From positions 1-6,835 of IMG/VR virus record IMGVR_UViG_3300011894_000040: a stretch of 6,835 bases of DNA; one strand, given 5' to 3'. The translations under genes and the position numbers were made by a program. This document shows, one piece after another, positions 1 to 6,835 of this stretch (position 1 is the stretch's first letter; each line of letters begins with the position of its first letter). This stretch comes from a virus. The notes below the pieces were generated by a model. It did no database searches, was not told the origin of the DNA, and was given only the letters and a program-made list of their open reading frames with translations.

Positions 1-77
1 AGATCAATTGTCTACTTCTAAAAAAACTGATACTGCACAGCCTCAGAATGCTAATCTTGATAACAAAGTTAAATTAG
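1..77. repeat. Terminal overlap, left copy (identical to 6759-6835); signature of a circular assembly
   Basis: Base-by-base reading shows agatcaattgtctacttctaaaaaaactgatactgcacagcctcagaatgctaatcttgataacaaagttaaattag at both ends. The reading frame of gI is continuous across the junction. Confidence 0.95.
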
Positions 78-547
78 ATGTTATACCGAAGGTATCCGAA
101 GAGGATTGCAGAAAAGGTGTAAATGTTCAAAAACCTGAATGTGTTGAATACTTTAACCGTCTAACTAAAAATGGTGAGTCTGTTGGTGTTGCTGTACAAC
201 AAGTAAGCTATGATCCGTCTAAGCCTTTTGAATCAGCCGAAAAGATACAAGAAACGGTTTCATATCAGGTTACTGCAAAGCCTGTATTGTCTGGTTGTAT
301 GACCGATCGTCACGGTAAGTTAGTTGGATATACTCAACAAGGTACAATTATTCATGGCCTCAATCAGTCCGATTGCAAACGTATAATTAAAGGAGATCGT
401 CCGTTTAATTACTTTGCTCAGCAGTCTGTACAACAACCTGTACAGCAAGCAGTTCAACAAGTTGCCACTAATCAGTCCTATCAGGCTAATAACTATGTTC
501 AGGAAGGCCTAGAACGTAATCCAGTGAATGGCGCGAACCAATTATGA
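1..547 (+). CDS. gI: Gene I (Zot/pI-like assembly protein), C-terminal part: continuation of the CDS that starts at 6091 (unique part 78-547, stop TGA 545-547)
   Basis: The frame of track ORF 8-547 equals the frame of 6091 after adding 6758. The TTG at 8 is internal, not a start. This part lies after the TM segment (6673-6738), so it is predicted periplasmic. It has 4 Cys and a [S/P/A]VQQ x3 repeat (12-nt units at 428-463). Confidence 0.85.
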   Translation, partial: DQLSTSKKTDTAQPQNANLDNKVKLDVIPKVSEEDCRKGVNVQKPECVEYFNRLTKNGESVGVAVQQVSYDPSKPFESAEKIQETVSYQVTAKPVLSGCMTDRHGKLVGYTQQGTIIHGLNQSDCKRIIKGDRPFNYFAQQSVQQPVQQAVQQVATNQSYQANNYVQEGLERNPVNGANQL

Positions 548-571
548 ATTTCTTCCCTCTGATCACAAAAT

Positions 572-692
572 CCGTCTCTTCGATGTGACGTTGCGTCTTA
601 AAGAAGTGTCTTCAGGGGAATTGAGACACATCGAGACAGTCTATTGATTTACCGTATAATATGAGTGTCTCAAGGCGTAGTCTAGACACTTC
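572..692. promoter_or_regulatory. Array of GTCT/AGAC-based motifs (candidate operator or iteron cluster)
   Basis: GTCTC 574, GTCTT 595, GTGTCTT 605, GAGACAC 623, GAGACAG 633, GTCTA 639, GTGTCTC 665, GTCTAGAC 680-687 (perfect palindrome), AGACAGTCT 634-642 (palindrome). The longer form TTGAGACAC / GTGTCTCAA recurs at 621-629, 665-673 and 883-891. About 10 copies in 120 bp, against roughly 1 expected by chance. Confidence 0.5.
633..660 (+). promoter_or_regulatory. Candidate sigma70 promoter: -35 GAGACA (633-638), 16-nt spacer, -10 TATAAT (655-660)
   Basis: Perfect -10 hexamer, 4/6 -35 at correct spacing. The -35 is embedded in the GAGACA motif array. It would transcribe the 664-892 element and the ORF at 912. 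Confidence 0.45.
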
Positions 693-892
693 GACATGAT
701 GATATGTGAACGTTCAGAATGTTTACTGGAGTTTGGAAGGAAAACGTGATTGCAGCGGTGCCGTAAGCGAGCACGACGCACATGCATAGTGTCGTAGGCA
801 CCGCAAAAGGTAAGTGGCTGTAAAATGGATAGGAAATTTCTGAAGGTAGAGAGCTTATCACTTAAGATGTGTTTATCTCGCCTTGAGACACT
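664..892 (+). other. About 230-nt structured element closed by a perfect 14-bp inverted repeat (ssDNA structure or RNA leader)
   Basis: AGTGTCTCAAGGCG (664-677) is the exact reverse complement of CGCCTTGAGACACT (879-892). An internal hairpin pairs GCGGTGCC (755-762) with GGCACCGC (797-804), with an inner stem ACGAC/GTCGT and an ATGCAT loop. No convincing ORF inside (only 12- and 17-codon fragments). Confidence 0.55.
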
Positions 893-911
893 TAAAAATA
901 AGGGGTATTTG

Positions 912-1052
912 ATGGCTGTTTGGCAATTTGTTAAAGATAACTTTGGGACTTTTTGGTTTCTTTTTATGGGCATCTTCTTTTTAGTAAGAACGTTTTTTTG
1001 GCTTATTCGTCAGCTTCGATACCAAAAACATGATGATCAATATATCCCTTGA
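912..1052 (+). CDS. Small hydrophobic membrane protein, 46 aa (MAVWQFVKDNFGTFWFLFMGIFFLVRTFFWLIRQLRYQKHDDQYIP)
   Basis: In frame with track ORF 825-1052. I prefer the ATG at 912 because of the SD AGGGG (901-905) 6 nt upstream. It has one Phe/Trp-rich TM segment followed by basic residues. The ATG at 825 is an alternative start with no visible SD. Confidence 0.5.
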   Translation: MAVWQFVKDNFGTFWFLFMGIFFLVRTFFWLIRQLRYQKHDDQYIP

Positions 1053-1159
1053 TTGGCATTTTATTACATCTCGAGTCAAGCCGGTGAGCTCGCCCTGGAA
1101 TCAAAAAAATGAATAAAATCAACACTTATGATTTTTTATAGATTGGCAAAATATTACAT
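1051..1159 (+). repeat. Pair of 19-bp direct repeats GATTGGCA-nnnT-ATTACAT (1051-1069 and 1141-1159), 90 bp apart
   Basis: gattggcattttattacat versus gattggcaaaatattacat, 16/19 identical, differing only in a central ttt/aaa. Confidence 0.6.
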
Positions 1160-1176
1160 TTAATTACCCTTTTGAA

Positions 1177-1233
1177 GCTGAAATGATTTTATGAAAAACT
1201 GAAATTTTTCATAAAATTTTCAGCACATTTTTT
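1177..1233 (+). other. AT-rich imperfect hairpin followed by a T-run (terminator, packaging signal or minus-strand origin candidate)
   Basis: GCTGAAA (1177-1183) pairs with TTTCAGC (1218-1224). TTTTATGAAAAA (1187-1198) pairs with TTTTTCATAAAA (1205-1216). Loop is ctgaaa and the T6 run is at 1228-1233. Confidence 0.45.
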
Positions 1234-1242
1234 AGCGTCTGA

Positions 1243-1344
1243 AAGTTCGCATAATGTGATGCACAGATTATGTTACTAAGCCCCAGTGAGAAAATTACGA
1301 AGTCTCACGGGGCTTTTTAACATCAATCTGCATTATGCGAATTT
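1243..1344 (+). other. About 100-nt forked hairpin with dif-like arms: candidate ssDNA attP for XerCD (CTXphi-type)
   Basis: Paired blocks are 1246-1256/1331-1341 (TTCGCATAATG, 11 bp), 1264-1269/1325-1330, 1270-1275/1318-1323, 1278-1284/1309-1315 and 1286-1291/1303-1308. There is a 7-nt bulge TGATGCA (1257-1263). The top strand reads TTCGCATAA-n13-TTATGTTAC. The complement of the bottom strand reads TTCGCATAA-TGCAGA-TTGATGTTAAA. Confidence 0.6.
1278..1318 (+). terminator. Rho-independent terminator candidate (apical part of the forked hairpin)
   Basis: AAGCCCC-A-GTGAGA / TCTCAC-GGGGCTT stem, 11-nt loop, then TTTTT (1314-1318). Lies downstream of the ORF at 912-1052. Confidence 0.45.
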
Positions 1345-1350
1345 GAAAGG

Positions 1351-1400
1351 TTGGGGGAGTCCACGTCTTCTAATGGTGGACTCTAGTCCGAAATTTCGGA
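1351..1400 (+). other. Plus-strand (rolling-circle) origin core with predicted gpII nick site between T1371 and A1372
   Basis: TTGGGGGAGTCCACGTCTTCTAATGGTGGACTCTAGTCCGAAATTTCGGA aligns almost base for base with the f1/M13 origin TTGGAGTCCACGTTCTTTAATAGTGGACTCTTGTTCCAAACTGGAACA (recalled from memory). The hairpin pairs GAGTCCAC (1357-1364) with GTGGACTC (1376-1383). It is followed by the perfect 14-bp palindrome TCCGAAATTTCGGA (1387-1400), in the position of the f1 TGTTCCA/TGGAACA repeat. Confidence 0.85.
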
Positions 1401-1404
1401 ATTT

Positions 1405-1617
1405 TTATAGATCTTTTGCGTTTCTTACAACTACTTTTCCATGTGCTGATATCTCAACATTTTCTATAGCTTGATCAAGGATGATGTGTACAAGCTCACT
1501 ATCCTTGATCGGCTGTAGATTTTTATTGATCAGAATTTTATTGAGCTCTACACACTTCTTTCGTAGAGATTCTTGCTCTTTGTCATTTAAACGAACTGTT
1601 ACTGCCATTTTCGTCAC
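1405..1617 (-). CDS. Ribbon-helix-helix (CopG/Arc-like) transcriptional regulator candidate, 67-70 aa
   Basis: This is the only convincing minus-strand ORF. AVTVRLNDKEQESLRKKCVEL fits beta-strand plus helix A, and DSELVHIILDQAIEN fits helix B of RHH proteins. The track start at 1617 is GTG; the ATG at 1608 (MAVTVRL...) is equally plausible. It is divergent from gII, as repressors of temperate inoviruses are. Confidence 0.5.
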   Translation of the reverse strand: MTKMAVTVRLNDKEQESLRKKCVELNKILINKNLQPIKDSELVHIILDQAIENVEISAHGKVVVRNAKDL

Positions 1618-1737
1618 ATTTTCGGGTTATTAACTTGCATACAATATTACTTGTATATCTGTTATATGTGCTTGCTATTCATGTGTAATTGTATTAAATT
1701 CCGCTTAATGTTATTTGTATACATGCGTAATTAGCCC
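1618..1737. promoter_or_regulatory. Divergent control region between the RHH gene and gII
   Basis: AT-rich. It contains the inverted repeat ATACAA-n6-TTGTAT (1639-1656) and the TGTATACA palindrome (1716-1723). A minus-strand promoter candidate has -35 TTACAC (complement of 1683-1688) and -10 TATAAC (complement of 1661-1666) with a 16-nt spacer. A plus-strand candidate has TTGCTA (1672-1677) and TTAAAT (1694-1699). All are weak calls. Confidence 0.3.
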
Positions 1738-2961
1738 ATGCTAGATCATATTTGCATAAATGCGCCTTTTGAATCCAGCTTCTACTCAGTAGATGCGGAA
1801 GGGCGTTATTTTTTTGTAGATATCGATCTTCACAGTATAGAAATACCGCTTGCTTCTCGTTCTGTTCATAAGAATGACGATGGTTCAATTTCTGCTGCTG
1901 CGTTATTCCATCCGTTTGAGTCGGTTCCGACTCATTACACTGGTATGGCAATGAAAGTTTTTTTTGATTCTTCGTATGAACCTTTTGTACAGATCAAGGC
2001 TTCTCCTGCGAAATTGCTGCAAGGGCATAATGTCTTTGGCAGCGACAACATAGAGCAGGGTGCTATGGAAATGATCGGCTTCTTACATGAAGCTTATCCG
2101 CTTCTTGCAAGGATGCTAGATTGGCCTCGTGCATGGGTTTCACATATTGATGTGACTTACTCAGTACGATTGAAAGACCAGAACACAGCTAAAAAAGTTT
2201 TGGATTTCTTGAGCAATGTCAGCAATGGCCAGACTCGTTTAAGTAACAAGCGTTTCGACAGTTCAGTATATTGGGGAGGTCAGACTTCAAGACTTGTGAA
2301 TCACAAGTGTTATATGAAGCATGACGAATTTATCGCTCAATTTGAGGAGTATAAGCAACTTGCAAAGAAGAACGATAAAGCAGCTCAACGAGTTGTTGAT
2401 GTCATGTCCAATTCGGATCTGATTAACTGGACTGTCGGTCTTTTACGTTTTGAATCACGTTTAAAAAAACGTTGGCTTGAACGTAATGGAATTCCTACCA
2501 ATCTCTTTGATTTAATTAAGTTTCAACGTTCCAATCCAAATTTACTTCAAACACTCTGGACTAAAGCTACTCATAGCATTTTTGATGCCTTACGAGGTCA
2601 AACTATGAAATTAACAGACGATACTAGTGTTCTTGAAGCTATCCAACGATCTGATGTTGTTTTAACCAAATCTGGTAAAGCTTCCCCAACTAAAGTACGT
2701 AATTTATTTGCCATGTATTGTCTTATCCGCGAAAAGGGATTTGATGAAGTTAAAACGACTTATGGCAAGTCTCAATTTCACAATCTAATAGCCCAGTTAT
2801 GTGCTGTACAAGGTCTTAATAAAGGTATCTTGCAGAACTTACATACAGGCAATGCCAACAATATTATTCCGTTTATTAAGTTCGTAGACATAGATTTCAA
2901 TCAACAATTGCCAGATTGGTACGAAGAGCCAGTTTCGCAGTTCAACTACAAAATTGCATAG
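1738..2961 (+). CDS. gII: Replication initiation endonuclease gpII (Ff-type rolling-circle initiator), 407 aa
   Basis: Collinear blocks match M13 gpII as recalled. HPFESVPTHYTGMAMKVF / VQIKASPAKLLQGHNVFG matches HPFESLPTHYSGIAFKIY / VEIKASPAKVLQGHNVFG. LSNVSNGQT matches LRNVSNGQT, and GLLRFESRLKKRWL matches GLVRFEARIKTRYL. NIIPFIKFVDIDFNQQLPDWYEEPV matches NVVPLVRFINVDFSSQRPDWYNEPV, and both proteins end in KIA. Tyr192 (tat 2311-2313, in CYMKH) aligns with M13 Tyr197 (AYLKH). Confidence 0.95.
   Translation: MLDHICINAPFESSFYSVDAEGRYFFVDIDLHSIEIPLASRSVHKNDDGSISAAALFHPFESVPTHYTGMAMKVFFDSSYEPFVQIKASPAKLLQGHNVFGSDNIEQGAMEMIGFLHEAYPLLARMLDWPRAWVSHIDVTYSVRLKDQNTAKKVLDFLSNVSNGQTRLSNKRFDSSVYWGGQTSRLVNHKCYMKHDEFIAQFEEYKQLAKKNDKAAQRVVDVMSNSDLINWTVGLLRFESRLKKRWLERNGIPTNLFDLIKFQRSNPNLLQTLWTKATHSIFDALRGQTMKLTDDTSVLEAIQRSDVVLTKSGKASPTKVRNLFAMYCLIREKGFDEVKTTYGKSQFHNLIAQLCAVQGLNKGILQNLHTGNANNIIPFIKFVDIDFNQQLPDWYEEPVSQFNYKIA
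2605..2961 (+). CDS. gX: gpX equivalent: in-frame internal translation product of gII, 118 aa
   Basis: The ATG at 2605 (Met290 of gpII) sits at the position homologous to the M13 gX start (MKLTDDTSVLEAIQ versus MNIYDDSAVLDAIQ). It is preceded by GAGG (2594-2597) with 7-nt spacing. Confidence 0.7.
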   Translation: MKLTDDTSVLEAIQRSDVVLTKSGKASPTKVRNLFAMYCLIREKGFDEVKTTYGKSQFHNLIAQLCAVQGLNKGILQNLHTGNANNIIPFIKFVDIDFNQQLPDWYEEPVSQFNYKIA

Positions 2962-2969
2962 GTGAGCAA

Positions 2970-3305
2970 ATGAACAATTCACAACATCCGATTATGACAG
3001 TTACAGGCATCCGTAAAGCTGCTGGCGACTTTCAGGACGATAAAGGCAAAACAATCGAGTTCTCAAACACGGTTGTAACTGTATTACAGAATTACTCTGA
3101 GCGTGAGCTTGAACAAGGTGCAATCGGATTCAAATCTACCGATTACAAAATCAAAGGCGCTCAGTTCTTTAATGATTACATGCATCAGAAGCTACCAGCC
3201 GAGGCTGCAATGATCTTTGATTGGGATTTCACGGGCAAACAGCCAAAGGCTGTGTTGGTTGCGCTAGATTTCAATGCGAAGAAACAGGAAGTTAAACCTC
3301 TATGA
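2970..3305 (+). CDS. ssDNA-binding protein candidate (gV position), 111 aa
   Basis: SD AGGTGA (2960-2965) precedes the ATG at 2970; the upstream part of track ORF 2916 overlaps the gII end and is discounted. It lies immediately after gII/gX as in Ff. The motif DKGKTIEFSNT resembles the QGKPYSLNE (M13 gpV) and KGNPYTFQE (Pf3 SSB) DNA-binding wing as recalled. Similarity is weak, so the call is mainly positional. Confidence 0.55.
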   Translation: MNNSQHPIMTVTGIRKAAGDFQDDKGKTIEFSNTVVTVLQNYSERELEQGAIGFKSTDYKIKGAQFFNDYMHQKLPAEAAMIFDWDFTGKQPKAVLVALDFNAKKQEVKPL

Positions 3306-3457
3306 TCAACATAAATCATTTTCAATCAGTTGTTTGCGCGGATTGTGGCGTTAAGTTTAAACCAGCATCACGATATTTAGAGTTGGGTGCTCACAAACCA
3401 CATTGCACACAAATAAGAGAAGAAACGGAAGAAAAACCTGTACAAACAAAGGCATAA
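3302..3457 (+). CDS. Small CxxC...HxxxC zinc-finger-like protein A, 51 aa (MININHFQSVVCADCGVKFKPASRYLELGAHKPHCTQIREETEEKPVQTKA)
   Basis: Not in the ORF track (too short). The ATG at 3302 overlaps the gV-like stop (ATGA coupling), and AGGAAG lies at 3286-3291. It has a CxxC-x15-HxxxC motif and an acidic/basic tail. It is paralogous in pattern to the ORF at 3514. Confidence 0.5.
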   Translation: MININHFQSVVCADCGVKFKPASRYLELGAHKPHCTQIREETEEKPVQTKA

Positions 3458-3464
3458 ATATACC

Positions 3465-3492
3465 GTTTCGCATAATGTATAATATGTTAAAA
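3465..3492 (+). other. Near-canonical 28-bp dif-like XerC/XerD site (GTTTCGCATAA-TGTATA-ATATGTTAAAA)
   Basis: 24/28 identical to E. coli dif GGTGCGCATAA-TGTATA-TTATGTTAAAT (9/11 XerC arm, 6/6 central, 9/11 XerD arm). The XerC arm plus first central bases (TTCGCATAATGT) are identical to 1246-1257. The same bases also contain TGTATAAT (3476-3483), an extended -10. Confidence 0.75.
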
Positions 3493-3513
3493 ATCAACAA
3501 CTTAGGTGATTTT

Positions 3514-3627
3514 ATGATTAAAAAGATAACACCAATGATGGGGGATAATCAAGTGGAATGTCCTAAATGTTATTCGTATTTTCACCGCAAATATTTGGCT
3601 TTTCACATGTCTAAGTGTGAAGGCTAA
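3514..3627 (+). CDS. Small CxxC...HxxxC zinc-finger-like protein B, 37 aa (MIKKITPMMGDNQVECPKCYSYFHRKYLAFHMSKCEG)
   Basis: SD AGGTGA (3504-3509) precedes the ATG at 3514. The upstream part of track ORF 3403 starts at TTG and reads through the dif-like site, so it is discounted. It has a CxxC-x11-HxxxC motif and shares V.C..C...F...(R/K)YL...H...C with protein A. Confidence 0.5.
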   Translation: MIKKITPMMGDNQVECPKCYSYFHRKYLAFHMSKCEG

Positions 3628-3636
3628 CTGGGGATT

Positions 3637-3852
3637 ATGAGTATGCAGATTGATGATTGCACAGCAACAACGGTAATCAATGGGGTCAATTACTGCGTAC
3701 TCGTCATACATCAACAAAGCTGGCTAGACGAACTCAACAATTTAACAGTTGTCCAAGTTGGTCTATTACTGTCTAGCACAGCGTTGATTTGGTACGTTGC
3801 TTGGGGCATACGTGCTGCTTTAGACCTACTTGGACATGATCATGAGGATTAA
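3637..3852 (+). CDS. Membrane protein sharing the major coat protein's C-terminal motif, 69-71 aa; candidate minor or cap coat protein
   Basis: It has a C-terminal TM (VVQVGLLLSSTALIWYVAWGI). YVAWGIRAALDLL (3793-3831) matches YVGWGIRRALSLL of gVIII (4075-4113) at 10/13 residues. There is no signal peptide and the tail is acidic (GHDHED). The ATG at 3643 has better spacing to GGGGA (3630-3634) than the ATG at 3637. Confidence 0.6.
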   Translation: MSMQIDDCTATTVINGVNYCVLVIHQQSWLDELNNLTVVQVGLLLSSTALIWYVAWGIRAALDLLGHDHED

Positions 3853-3855
3853 CAC

Positions 3856-4119
3856 ATGGAAAATAATCAACAACCTCTACAAGCTACTGATAACACCAAA
3901 AAGGCTGTTACTGCCGTAAAACGCGCAGCTATGACTGCTGGTGTTGTAATGGCAACTACTGCTGCGGCATTTGCTGAAGATGGGGGCACTTCGATTGATT
4001 TAACCACTGGCTTGGCTGGTGTTGCGATTATTGCGGGTCTTCTTTCTGTAGGTAGCCTCAAGGCTGTACCAACATATGTTGGTTGGGGTATTCGTCGAGC
4101 GTTATCACTTCTTCGCTAA
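3856..4119 (+). CDS. gVIII: Major coat protein precursor (gVIII type), 87 aa, predicted mature 47 aa
   Basis: SD GAGGA (3844-3848) lies 7 nt upstream. The leader ends in AFA with cleavage predicted before EDGG. The mature protein has an acidic N-terminus (E, D, D), a hydrophobic core (GLAGVAIIAGLLSVG) and a basic C-terminus (K, R, R, R). It is followed directly by a strong terminator, as in Ff. Confidence 0.85.
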   Translation: MENNQQPLQATDNTKKAVTAVKRAAMTAGVVMATTAAAFAEDGGTSIDLTTGLAGVAIIAGLLSVGSLKAVPTYVGWGIRRALSLLR

Positions 4120-4136
4120 TTGATAAAACAAAAAAA

Positions 4137-4182
4137 AGCTGGGAGGAGCGCACAGCTGTACGCACCTCACCCAGCTTTTTTT
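4137..4182 (+). terminator. Rho-independent terminator after the coat gene
   Basis: AGCTGGG (4137-4143) pairs with CCCAGCT (4170-4176), with further AGG/CCT and GCG/CGC pairs. It is followed by T7 (4176-4182) and preceded by an A-run, so it may work in both directions. Confidence 0.85.
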
Positions 4183-4201
4183 ATAACTGGAGTAAAGCGA
4201 A

Positions 4202-4264
4202 ATGACCGTCTATTACATCATTGTGGTGGCTCTTGCGTTGTGGATCGTCTTGTCGGGGAAATAG
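4202..4264 (+). CDS. 20-aa hydrophobic mini-ORF (MTVYYIIVVALALWIVLSGK), candidate gVII/gIX-like minor coat or membrane peptide
   Basis: Not in the ORF track. GGAG (4189-4192) lies upstream. The stop TAG (4262-4264) is 1 nt before the gIII ATG at 4266, which suggests translational coupling. It is a single TM-length hydrophobic stretch. Confidence 0.4.
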   Translation: MTVYYIIVVALALWIVLSGK

Positions 4265-4265
4265 T

Positions 4266-5812
<1,547 letters not shown>

Positions 5813-5813
<1 letters not shown>

Positions 5814-6091
5814 TGCTTAAGTTTCTCGCAAAGTTAACAGAATGGTTATTAAAAAACTCGGTTCAAAAGGTGCTTACTGGGGCGGGTTTATCGGTGGTTT
5901 CTTACCTGTCTGTAGTAGCTGTAATAAGGGTCGCTTTTAACAGTTTAATTAATTCAATTTATAGCGTTTCTGCTGATCTTCTTAATTTTATGGGTATTTG
6001 TGGGATCGATTACGCTTTAAGTGGTTTCGTTTCTGTAGCTGTTTTCTTGATGAGTATTAAACAAGGCAGCTTATCTTTGAGGAAAAAATAA
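5813..6091 (+). CDS. Small multi-TM membrane protein at the gVI position, immediately upstream of the Zot-like gene (as Ace is upstream of Zot in CTXphi), 92 aa
   Basis: The ATG at 5813 overlaps the gIII stop (TAATG), with GGAG at 5802-5805. Its own stop overlaps the gI start (TAATG at 6089-6093). It has two to three hydrophobic segments. The call is positional. Confidence 0.6.
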
Positions 6092-6835
6092 TGAGTCAAT
6101 CTGCTGGCGGTACGTTTCGACTTGTTTGCGGTCAAATTGGCGCGGGTAAATCATATCTGTATGTTAAACAAGTAGAAGAAGAAATTAAAAAAAGTGGCAA
6201 ATATAAAAAGATTTATTCAAACATTCGTGCACATGCTGAATTAGCTGAAGGTATTACACCACTTCCAGACGATTGGCGAGAATGTGAACCTGATAGCCTT
6301 GTAATTATTGACGAGGTACAGAAACATGAGAAGTTTAGTAAACACTTCTCCAGTCGTCGTGATAGCGAGATTGTAGACCTTACAATGATTCGACATCAGC
6401 GTTTAGATTTATGGCTTATCAGCCCCAATCCAGCGCTAGTAAACAGTGATGTGCGGAACCTTGTGACACAGTATTTCTGGCTTGAAGTTGTAGGTGCTAA
6501 AACAACGAAATGCTATTGTTTTACGAAGGTTTATAACAGTATTACCAAATCAATTAAATTACAGGCTTATGATGAGTTTGTTTATACAATCGAAGAGAAG
6601 TATCACAAACTTTATAAATCTACTGAAGACGGTATAGCATCAGGTCGTAACTATAATTTTAATGTTAAGTTATGGGGCTTTGTAGGTGGTTTGGTTGTTG
6701 TAGTTATTGTGGCTTGTTTTCTTGTAGGTTTTTTTGCAAAGGGGACAAAAACAAAAAAAGATCAATTGTCTACTTCTAAAAAAACTGATACTGCACAGCC
6801 TCAGAATGCTAATCTTGATAACAAAGTTAAATTAG
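6091..6835 (+). CDS. gI: Gene I (Zot/pI-like assembly ATPase), N-terminal part; the CDS continues across the circular junction to 547 (404 aa in total)
   Basis: Absent from the ORF track because it has no stop inside the window. SD GAGGA (6079-6083) is present. Walker A is GQIGAGKS (6130-6153; M13 pI has GKLGAGKT). Walker B-like is LVIIDEVQ (M13 has LLVLDECG). The TM segment is LWGFVGGLVVVVIVACFLVGFF. Confidence 0.9.
   Translation, partial: MSQSAGGTFRLVCGQIGAGKSYLYVKQVEEEIKKSGKYKKIYSNIRAHAELAEGITPLPDDWRECEPDSLVIIDEVQKHEKFSKHFSSRRDSEIVDLTMIRHQRLDLWLISPNPALVNSDVRNLVTQYFWLEVVGAKTTKCYCFTKVYNSITKSIKLQAYDEFVYTIEEKYHKLYKSTEDGIASGRNYNFNVKLWGFVGGLVVVVIVACFLVGFFAKGTKTKKDQLSTSKKTDTAQPQNANLDNKVKL
6759..6835. 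repeat. Terminal overlap, right copy (identical to 1-77)
   Basis: Same 77-nt string as 1-77. Position p at the left end corresponds to p+6758. Confidence 0.95.

Follow-up and report, generated by a model that had tools for sequence, protein, structure and literature searches.

A probable second Xer site, of duplex dif type, at the replication/structural boundary of a CTXphi-like Acinetobacter inovirus

A dif-type site at the border of two modules

The window analysed here, a stretch of 6,835 nucleotides covering positions 1 to 6,835 of IMG/VR virus record IMGVR_UViG_3300011894_000040, ends with the same 77 nt with which it begins and thus represents a circular genome of 6758 bp. This is the genome of a CTXphi-like inovirus (filamentous phage) of Acinetobacter: it occurs at 99.9% identity within Acinetobacter chromosomes, so that its host is Acinetobacter, and the nearest deposited phage is Acinetobacter phage M02 (OQ693633). 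All genes share one coding strand save a small repressor-like gene, and they form a replication module (the repressor-like gene, rep, an ssb-like gene for a putative single-stranded DNA (ssDNA)-binding protein, and zn1) and a structural module (Table 1). At the border of the two modules, in the 56-bp gap between the open reading frames (ORFs) zn1 and zn2, lies a 28-bp dif-type site, difP, which we propose to be a second Xer recombination site of the phage. An earlier reading of the sequence, hereafter the original prediction, had reported a near-canonical dif-like site in a 56-bp gap between two small ORFs, matching E. coli dif at 24/28 positions with an identical centre. Recomputation confirmed each of these statements; the site had been placed amid the morphogenesis genes, whereas it actually marks the border between replication and structural modules.

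difP reads GTTTCGCATAA-TGTATA-ATATGTTAAAA. It also agrees at 24/28 positions with the dif of Acinetobacter ADP1 (GATTCGTATAATGTATATTATGTTAAAT; PMC2731167) and at 25/28 with the dif of a Moraxellaceae genome (L002), the 6-bp centre being identical in both; the same TGTATA is the centre of dif in L004, L072 and others, and complete exchange requires such identity of the two partner centres. The second-best 28-mer of the window scores 17/28 against dif, and the best score in 300 first-order Markov simulations was at most 21. Together with conservation across 48 distinct copies, these simulations lead us to reject a chance or relic origin of difP. It is the only duplex site with a 6-bp spacer in the genome. 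The sequence TTCGCATAATG, expected 0.2 times, occurs three times (1246+, 1331- and 3467+), and the two copies outside difP are the two arms of a hairpin described below. Within the inner palindrome, the XerC half (ATAA-TGTATA) follows the dif-type motif ATAA-N6-TTAT, and the XerD half reads ATAT, not TTAT.

Table 1. Features of the window, by window position (the last ORF crosses the circle junction).
Feature	Position	Strand	Remarks
difP, duplex dif-type site	3465-3492	+	24/28 to E. coli dif
difP XerC arm	3465-3475	+	GTTTCGCATAA
difP 6-bp centre	3476-3481	+	TGTATA, identical to host dif
difP XerD-like arm, off-consensus	3482-3492	+	ATATGTTAAAA; host arm TTATGTTAAAT
Upstream flank of difP	3441-3464	+	CAAAGGCATAAATATACC type, consensus atCAAAGnnTTAAnnATAnnn; conserved; overlaps zn1 end
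Downstream flank of difP	3493-3504	+	ATCAACAACTTA, consensus ATCAATAACTTA; 0-2 nt past XerD-like arm; conserved
Hairpin attP(+)	1244-1343	+	two inverted dif-like sites, hp1 and hp2, with loop
hp1	1244-1277	+	XerC arm 1244-1254, 12-nt centre 1255-1266, XerD-like arm 1267-1277
hp2	1343-1315	-	XerC arm 1343-1333, 7-nt centre 1332-1326, XerD-like arm 1325-1315
Ff-type (+)-strand origin core	1357-1400	+	nick-site hairpin GAGTCCAC...GTGGACTC and adjacent inverted repeat
Repressor-like small gene	1405-1617	-	rstR position; phrog_5642; putative function, from position
rep, replication initiator, gpII type	1738-2961	+	PF05144 at 2e-49, plus PF05155
ssb-like gene, 111 aa	2970-3305	+	gV/RstB position; putative ssDNA-binding protein, from position
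zn1, 51 aa	3302-3457	+	single zinc-finger-like microprotein (C-x2-C...H-x3-C); last replication-side gene
zn2, 37 aa	3514-3627	+	C2HC zinc-finger microprotein; first gene past difP
Structural/assembly module	3637-6835	+	p71, coat, pIII-like, pVI-like, Zot/pI-like
Major coat protein	3856-4119	+	
pIII-like protein	4266-5813	+	Gly/Ser/Thr repeat linker
pVI-like protein	5813-6091	+	DUF2523
Zot/pI-like protein	6091 to 547	+	wraps across circle junction

Conservation of the site and its flanks

A Rep-based scan recovered 4 loci in species-representative genomes and 65 in IMG/VR, and a metagenome scan with the right half of the site yielded 13 further loci. The 28 bp are well conserved among relatives: difP is intact in 55 copies (48 distinct when taken with their flanks as 118-mers), with 12 XerC-arm variants, in phages whose Rep proteins share 36-100% identity. 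In all 55 cases the site shares the strand of rep and separates rep and the ssb-like gene (with zn1 where present) from the structural genes downstream. Every copy has the centre TGTATA, and the XerD-like arm starts with ATATGT throughout (ATCTGT once), never with TTATGT; the outer half of this arm is variable (TAAAA, AAATA, CAATT, CAATA). The arm was surveyed with an unbiased pattern, any arm followed by TGTATA and any arm, whose matches had either the phage arm or TTATGTTAAAT, the chromosomal arm, with chromosome after it. Some relatives, such as L002, have no difP.

Conservation extends past the 28 bp, with a CAAAGnnTTAA-type motif upstream and a conserved motif downstream. The upstream flank type precedes essentially all intact copies, regardless of the preceding gene; a few have an alternative upstream sequence, tagttatttttacc, which is also found at junctions formed by the difP XerC arm. 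Counted from where the XerD-like arm starts, the downstream motif has an offset of 11-13 in 47/48 distinct copies, a figure to be read with the fact that the 13 metagenome loci were chosen by a pattern that already contains it; a 5′ untranslated region, a regulatory site and an accessory site are candidates for its role. The two flanks make up an imperfect direct repeat around the core site (ATCAAAGGCTTA-like upstream, ATCAAYAACTTA directly downstream), and both are kept across distant relatives.

Two microproteins bracket difP. zn2 shows a single classical C-x2-C...H-x3-C pattern and zn1 resembles a looser version of it; Pfam gave no match for zn1 and a weak C2HC match only for zn2. In relatives, the first ORF past difP encodes a 29-40-aa zinc finger in 37/42 distinct cases, with zf-C2H2 Pfam matches just below threshold (best 24.0 bits against a cut-off of 25.2). 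zn1 and zn2 could be regulators or Xer accessory factors.

This arrangement raises the question of whether difP is mainly a transcription or regulatory element of the structural operon, a TATAAT promoter perhaps under zinc-finger control, with its dif likeness a relic and recombination a side effect. The first position of the XerD arm, where A always replaces the T of dif, is the sole invariant difference between the two sites and makes a perfect TATAAT; both the conservation beyond 28 bp (12 nt downstream, a motif upstream) and the zinc-finger micro-ORF that so often comes next would suit such a role. The original prediction had indeed called an extended -10 at 3476-3483. In TGTATAAT, however, TG directly abuts TATAAT, where a canonical extended -10 would read TGnTATAAT, and a sigma-70 consensus scan found no -35 and called no promoter at 3476-3483. 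Moreover, a full XerC arm and a dif-identical centre, kept in 12 arm variants, are unlike a relic, and recombination has taken place at difP independently in at least 10 lineages, as described below. We regard a mainly transcriptional role as very improbable; promoter activity would nonetheless be compatible with a recombination site and the two are not exclusive.

A CTXphi-like hairpin forms the left prophage junctions

No integrase domain was detected in the window ORFs tested (Pfam and PHROGs scans), in agreement with the original prediction, and its proposal of two Xer-type sites in one genome was borne out. The second of these is a hairpin of two inverted dif-like sites with a loop. The ssDNA fold of positions 1236-1352 has -29.5 kcal/mol (z = -8.1); it pairs the two XerC arms and leaves a bulge of 7 nt between them and the rest, where a 12-nt centre faces one of 7 nt. 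This anatomy is that of the CTXphi attP(+) (PMC4246890), and the hairpin tests place the genome among the CTX-type integrative mobile elements that exploit Xer (IMEX).

The left ends of lysogens consist of the chromosomal flank and chromosomal XerC arm joined to the hairpin centre at window 1244/1245, as in CTX-type integration. The junction ...attacacaac AGTTCGTATAA^TGTGATGCACAG occurs in L072, L091, L098 and L099, and junctions of the same type, with a chromosomal XerC arm fused to a hairpin centre, occur in L004, L037 and L082. Every left end that abuts the left chromosomal flank is of this hairpin type; since these left junctions are CTX-type, the hairpin is the integrating attP.

The difP XerC arm forms right junctions and array junctions

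Right ends are of two kinds. In the first, seen about five times (for example in L002, and in L004 at 18911), TGTATA-TTATGTTAAAT and the chromosome follow the hairpin XerC arm. In the second, they follow the difP XerC arm, which is preceded by its cognate upstream sequence; this kind is found in 8-10 lineages with differing arms (M02, L005, L012, L024, L028, L037, L065, L068 and L082, plus the window phage in L072). The prophage junctions envisaged in the original prediction thus gave a divided answer: the XerC arm of difP does form right junctions, but the left junctions at the chromosomal flank are all made by the hairpin. Its alternative suggestion that difP marks a module boundary is supported by the comparative data, the lysogen right end being the difP XerC arm joined to the spacer and XerD arm of chromosomal dif.

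Inside arrays, at least 24 fusions link a difP XerC arm to the hairpin centre of the element that follows, among them the hybrid with the window's own GTTTCGCATAA arm (L006, L095, L100). The folds of these hybrid hairpins are as good as those of native hairpins. Such fusions explain why both sites have a common XerC arm, as the original prediction had noticed: the arms are exchanged in natural arrays. The crossovers of all these dif-type products lie inside or at the edge of the centre (difP XerC arm-TGTATA-chromosomal XerD arm; difP XerC arm fused to hairpin centre). Judged from sequence comparison, difP is a real, conserved and recombinationally active dif-type site.

Two individual loci show further arrangements. 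At L009 (6742-6860), a complete difP (28 bp + ATCAATAA) is fused straight to the hairpin loop GCCCCAGTGAGA, so that the whole first hairpin arm is replaced; in the fold of this fusion the XerC arms are unpaired. In the M02 record (L001, OQ693633), positions 1-128 repeat 5816-5943. What was deposited as a 'complete circular genome' spans one genome length of a lysogenic array, cut from difP to the hybrid dif, and the record's ~300 bp past dif (5955-6243) are taken as host chromosome; their first 40-odd nt match the right chromosomal flank of L072.

One chromosomal slot, five prophage states

The chromosomal slot of the window phage lies between a fimbrial operon and a resistance-nodulation-division (RND) efflux operon, and genomes with identical Rep show five arrangements in that one slot. 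(i) L091, L098 and L099 hold a 2.2-kb mini-element only, window 1244-3475 followed by dif; GCA_001415395.1 is from a strain in this state. (ii) L092 holds two such units in tandem. (iii) L072 (NCBI GCA_030187175.2; 99.9% identical to the window phage) holds a 1.33-mer, which runs from window 1244 through the whole circle to 3475 and then dif, with difP intact. (iv) L093 has the same 1.33-mer layout with a different structural module; its Rep protein is 100% identical in amino acids to that of the window, and its replication-module DNA ~97% identical. (v) L095, L100 and L006 hold an internally deleted copy, then a replication module, then a foreign mini-element. The structural module is missing from mini-elements and present in a single copy in 1.33-mer arrays, and zn1 accompanies the replication module in mini-elements (L091, L092, L098). 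Seven contigs of 2.10-2.16 kb with arbitrary terminal overlaps represent circular or tandem mini-elements.

The order in L072 is left flank-AGTTCGTATAA^TGTGATGCACAG (window 1244), the whole genome with intact difP, and an intact hairpin; past this second hairpin come the repressor-like gene, rep, the ssb-like gene, zn1, GTTTCGCATAA-TGTATA-TTATGTTAAAT and the right flank. The terminal hybrid dif lies downstream of difP at a distance of 6758 bp. The same layout recurs in three further phage types (L037, L068, L082). In each of the three 1.33-mers checked (L072, L037, L068), the replication-module copies show 100% identity to each other over 2.1-2.2 kb. Intact difP also occurs ~4-4.6 kb upstream of dif on one contig in L046 and L049. 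We rejected L049 as a clean single prophage, its right end holding ~380 bp of another element's intergenic region, and use it as evidence only for the coexistence of intact difP and dif on one contig.

Just past the hairpin, within the segment that is duplicated in 1.33-mers, lies an Ff-type origin core. Its alignment with M13 (locus spanning M13 5650-5950) shows the invariant GAGTCCACG...TAAT.GTGGACTCT.GT, and the core (GAGTCCACGTCTTCTAATGGTGGACTCTAGTCCGAAATTTCGGA) is also kept in M02 and L002. Because the origin is inside the duplicated segment, 1.33-mers hold two origins bracketing one complete genome. In CTXphi-RS1 arrays, the same two-origin layout allows rolling-circle release of unit-length ssDNA (PMC4246890).

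A further comparison locates an exchange between phages. The structural module of L075 is 98% identical to that of the window in pVI, zot and the intergenic region and ~87% identical in coat and pIII. The similarity begins exactly at 3467, and the few bases upstream of difP belong to another replication-module type; the swap point is therefore difP.

These states bear on the claim, made in the original prediction, that difP might be a second, independent duplex attP: the replicative form (RF) would integrate into chromosomal dif in the style of VGJphi or TLCphi, independently of the hairpin. The good XerC arm and dif-identical centre would allow this, right junctions of the difP XerC arm-TGTATA-chromosomal XerD arm type are common, and exactly one genome, at difP, separates the mini-only state from the 1.33-mer. 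The diagnostic left junction, a chromosomal, hairpin-type or foreign XerC arm followed by TGTATA and the phage XerD-like arm, was nevertheless found in 0/55 copies. A metagenome search for the hairpin arm + TGTATA + ATATGT likewise gave 0 matches, an IMG/VR search with a pattern specific to the left chromosomal flank brought up only L037 again, an IMG/VR search for the hairpin arm + TGTATA returned only the cut end of L060, and the left ends at the chromosomal flank all join the chromosomal XerC arm to a hairpin centre. RF insertion at the hybrid dif of a cognate mini-element would escape this diagnosis, as it would recreate an 'intact' difP on the left. We consider integration of this kind unlikely, and difP is probably not the primary attP.

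The deletion in state (v) is shared by three assemblies (L006 334-1275; L095 and L100 5880-8340), where it lies upstream of a full replication module and fuses rep codon ~282 to pIII codon ~477 (window ~2567 to ~5693); it looks like a defective copy maintained in arrays. Elsewhere (L025, L013, L029, L061), long dif arrays are made solely of replication-module mini-elements of several unrelated Rep types. Each of their units ends at a difP XerC arm, and identical units often form tandem pairs.

A proposed role for difP in duplex DNA

We think it probable that difP is a working second Xer site, acting in duplex DNA at the replication/structural boundary of this CTXphi-like inovirus. In the proposed mechanism, the ssDNA hairpin would first integrate at dif through XerC exchange at the XerC-arm/centre boundary, with the left junctions observed in lysogens as the outcome. 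difP, on the same strand, would then stand as a direct repeat of the dif regenerated at the prophage right end. A XerCD crossover between the two, within their common TGTATA, would join the difP XerC arm to the chromosomal XerD arm; this product is found in lysogens, and from it we infer the pathway, together with its direction and a role for FtsK. On a single prophage, the reaction would shed the structural module, leaving a 2.2-kb RS1-like mini-element that retains the hairpin, the origin and the replication-module genes (repressor-like gene, rep, ssb-like gene, zn1); a 1.33-mer would result if it took place on the second member of a tandem. The 1.33-mer, a full prophage plus a replication-module repeat, is the typical layout of lysogens, which could release unit genomes by rolling-circle replication from their two Ff-type origins, as CTXphi-RS1 arrays do. 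Because difP and the terminal hybrid dif of a 1.33-mer are direct repeats one genome apart, Xer could also excise and re-insert a complete circle. Between phages, difP would be the point at which replication and structural modules are exchanged.

Recombination at dif by A. baumannii XerC/XerD depends on FtsK, and the ATAA-centre-TTAT motif governs binding and cutting, sites that deviate from it not being cut (PMC11705084). The invariant ATAT and variable outer arm of difP suggest an attenuated XerD half-site. The reaction would then be infrequent or driven by XerC, in keeping with the contigs on which difP and dif stand together (L046, L049, L072).

Several points weigh against this proposal. 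The action of XerC/XerD at difP is deduced solely from crossover positions, and the XerD-like arm, with ATAT (once ATCT) in place of TTAT and a variable outer half, may bind XerD or be cleaved poorly. The reciprocal product, the hairpin XerC arm followed by TGTATA and the difP XerD-like arm, was never seen; its absence fits loss of the excised circle, yet it is a missing piece. Junctions of the difP XerC arm with dif could also arise by CTX-type integration of an existing mini-element's hybrid hairpin, not by duplex recombination, and RecA recombination within the identical replication-module repeats could interconvert the 1.33-mer and mini-only states. Finally, intact difP beside dif in L046 and L049 means that deletion is neither obligatory nor fast. 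The first formation of each of at least 10 independent difP-dif hybrids still requires a crossover at difP.

Could difP instead resolve RF multimers, as cer or psi do for plasmids, a role that the original prediction had also raised in the form of dimer resolution? A small multicopy circle with one dif-type site would suit this, and some Acinetobacter plasmid Xer sites may have this function (PMC11705084). However, Rep-terminated rolling-circle replication gives monomers; no accessory sequences were identified at difP, the conserved flanks amounting to ~25 bp compared with the ~180 bp of accessory DNA of cer and psi; and the observed products are phage-chromosome and phage-phage junctions. We consider this function very unlikely.

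More tentatively than we propose a working duplex site, we raise the possibility that the family uses two Xer strategies side by side: entry through an irreversible CTX-type hairpin, and a built-in duplex dif mimic whose XerD arm is deliberately weakened, so that the structural module or a genome-length circle could be reversibly detached from a resident replication module. If this adaptive reading holds, the phage would produce both an RS1-like satellite and an excision helper of its own, in cis; V. cholerae needs separate elements for these functions (RS1, VGJphi, TLCphi). By analogy with XafT for TLCphi, the zinc-finger proteins and conserved flanks may control the difP reaction.

Relation to known Xer-exploiting elements

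Elements that exploit Xer have been sorted into classes, each with one attachment-site logic (PMC4246890). The window phage resembles CTXphi/RS1 in having no integrase, in its forked (+)ssDNA hairpin of two inverted dif-like sites with a bulged centre, in junctions at the XerC-arm/centre boundary, and in dif arrays of a prophage plus a replication-module element, which CTXphi needs for rolling-circle virion production (PMC4246890). It differs in that the replication/structural boundary is a dif-type site at which RS1-like units exactly end, whereas the review attributes to CTXphi only a hairpin attP and mentions no duplex dif site between RS2 and core (PMC4246890). Its Rep, moreover, is of the gpII/Phage_CRI type with an Ff-like origin, not RstA.

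With VGJphi-type IMEX (duplex attP, XerC-only, reversible), it shares one 28-29-bp duplex dif-like site on the RF, homology on the XerC side, and products that retain a functional dif. Unlike VGJphi, the centre of difP is identical to dif at 6/6 positions, not on the XerC side only; attL, the chromosomal XerC arm with the phage XerD arm, appears in 0/55 copies; and difP does not lie in the intergenic region. A neighbouring VGJphi or TLCphi can aid excision of irreversibly integrated CTXphi (PMC4246890), whereas here the 'helper' site is in cis. Likeness to TLCphi lies in the dif-like XerC arm and centre, combined with an XerD arm that is degenerate, at 9/11 here and 7/11 for the variant of M02 type. 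In TLCphi, however, the duplex site is the only attP, and Pfam and PHROGs scans of the ORFs found no XafT/DUF3653 homologue, so that difP does not qualify as a TLC-type attP either.

The pdif modules of Acinetobacter plasmids involve the same genus and recombinases, and 11-6-11 dif-like sites that bound exchangeable modules (PMC11705084). Those modules are flanked by inverted pairs with varied centres, whereas the one site of the phage shares the centre of chromosomal dif, forms a direct repeat with the dif at attR and has an ssDNA hairpin as partner. Orientation and number of sites exclude a reading of difP as part of a pdif module.

The difA/difB pair of the gonococcal genetic island, of which one site is good and the other imperfect, reportedly keeps that element beside dif, FtsK-driven loss being limited by the imperfect site. 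That island is no phage and is without a hairpin site, and any attenuation here is suggested only by the ATAT arm. The review counts it in the TLCphi class (PMC4246890). The closest functional parallels would be RS1 formation and the help that VGJphi and TLCphi give to CTXphi excision. A search of open-access papers and bioRxiv turned up no account of an internal dif-type site, either in Acinetobacter inoviruses or in others of CTX type.

These observations describe a large and widespread family of Acinetobacter phages with both a hairpin site and a duplex dif mimic, and natural lysogens show the use of both, the same slot holding one mini-element, two or a 1.33-mer. They offer a sequence-level explanation for the origin of RS1-like satellites and for the shuffling of replication and structural modules among phages. 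CTX-type integration is seen as one-way, exit needing tandem copies, RS1 or a neighbouring element; difP suggests a release route for an irreversibly integrated phage. Annotation is affected as well: the ends of these phages are wrongly set by prophage callers, and in at least one 'complete genome' in GenBank (M02), because the difP/dif repeat is taken as their limit.

Other features of the genome

The 111-aa ssb-like protein matches phrog_4994, a PHROG of unknown function, and a PDB search with it found no relative. The linker of the pIII-like protein (window 5246-5437) is encoded by degenerate 12/18-nt tandem repeats, and the length of this repeat stretch varies among otherwise near-identical copies (window and L075). 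Directly 3′ of the major coat gene, at 4130-4181, a GC-rich palindrome lies between A and T runs; it is likely a bidirectional terminator or attenuator, as in Ff phages, and a terminator scan made no call at this position. In the intergenic region past zot (548-900), a 14-nt perfect inverted repeat has its arms at 664-677 and 879-892, ~200 nt apart, and GTGTCTCAAGGCGTAGTCTAGACAC motifs are repeated; the fold z-score of the whole region is only -2.6. These features are kept at 78-86% in phages with different genes, and the region may be a packaging signal or a (-)-origin candidate.

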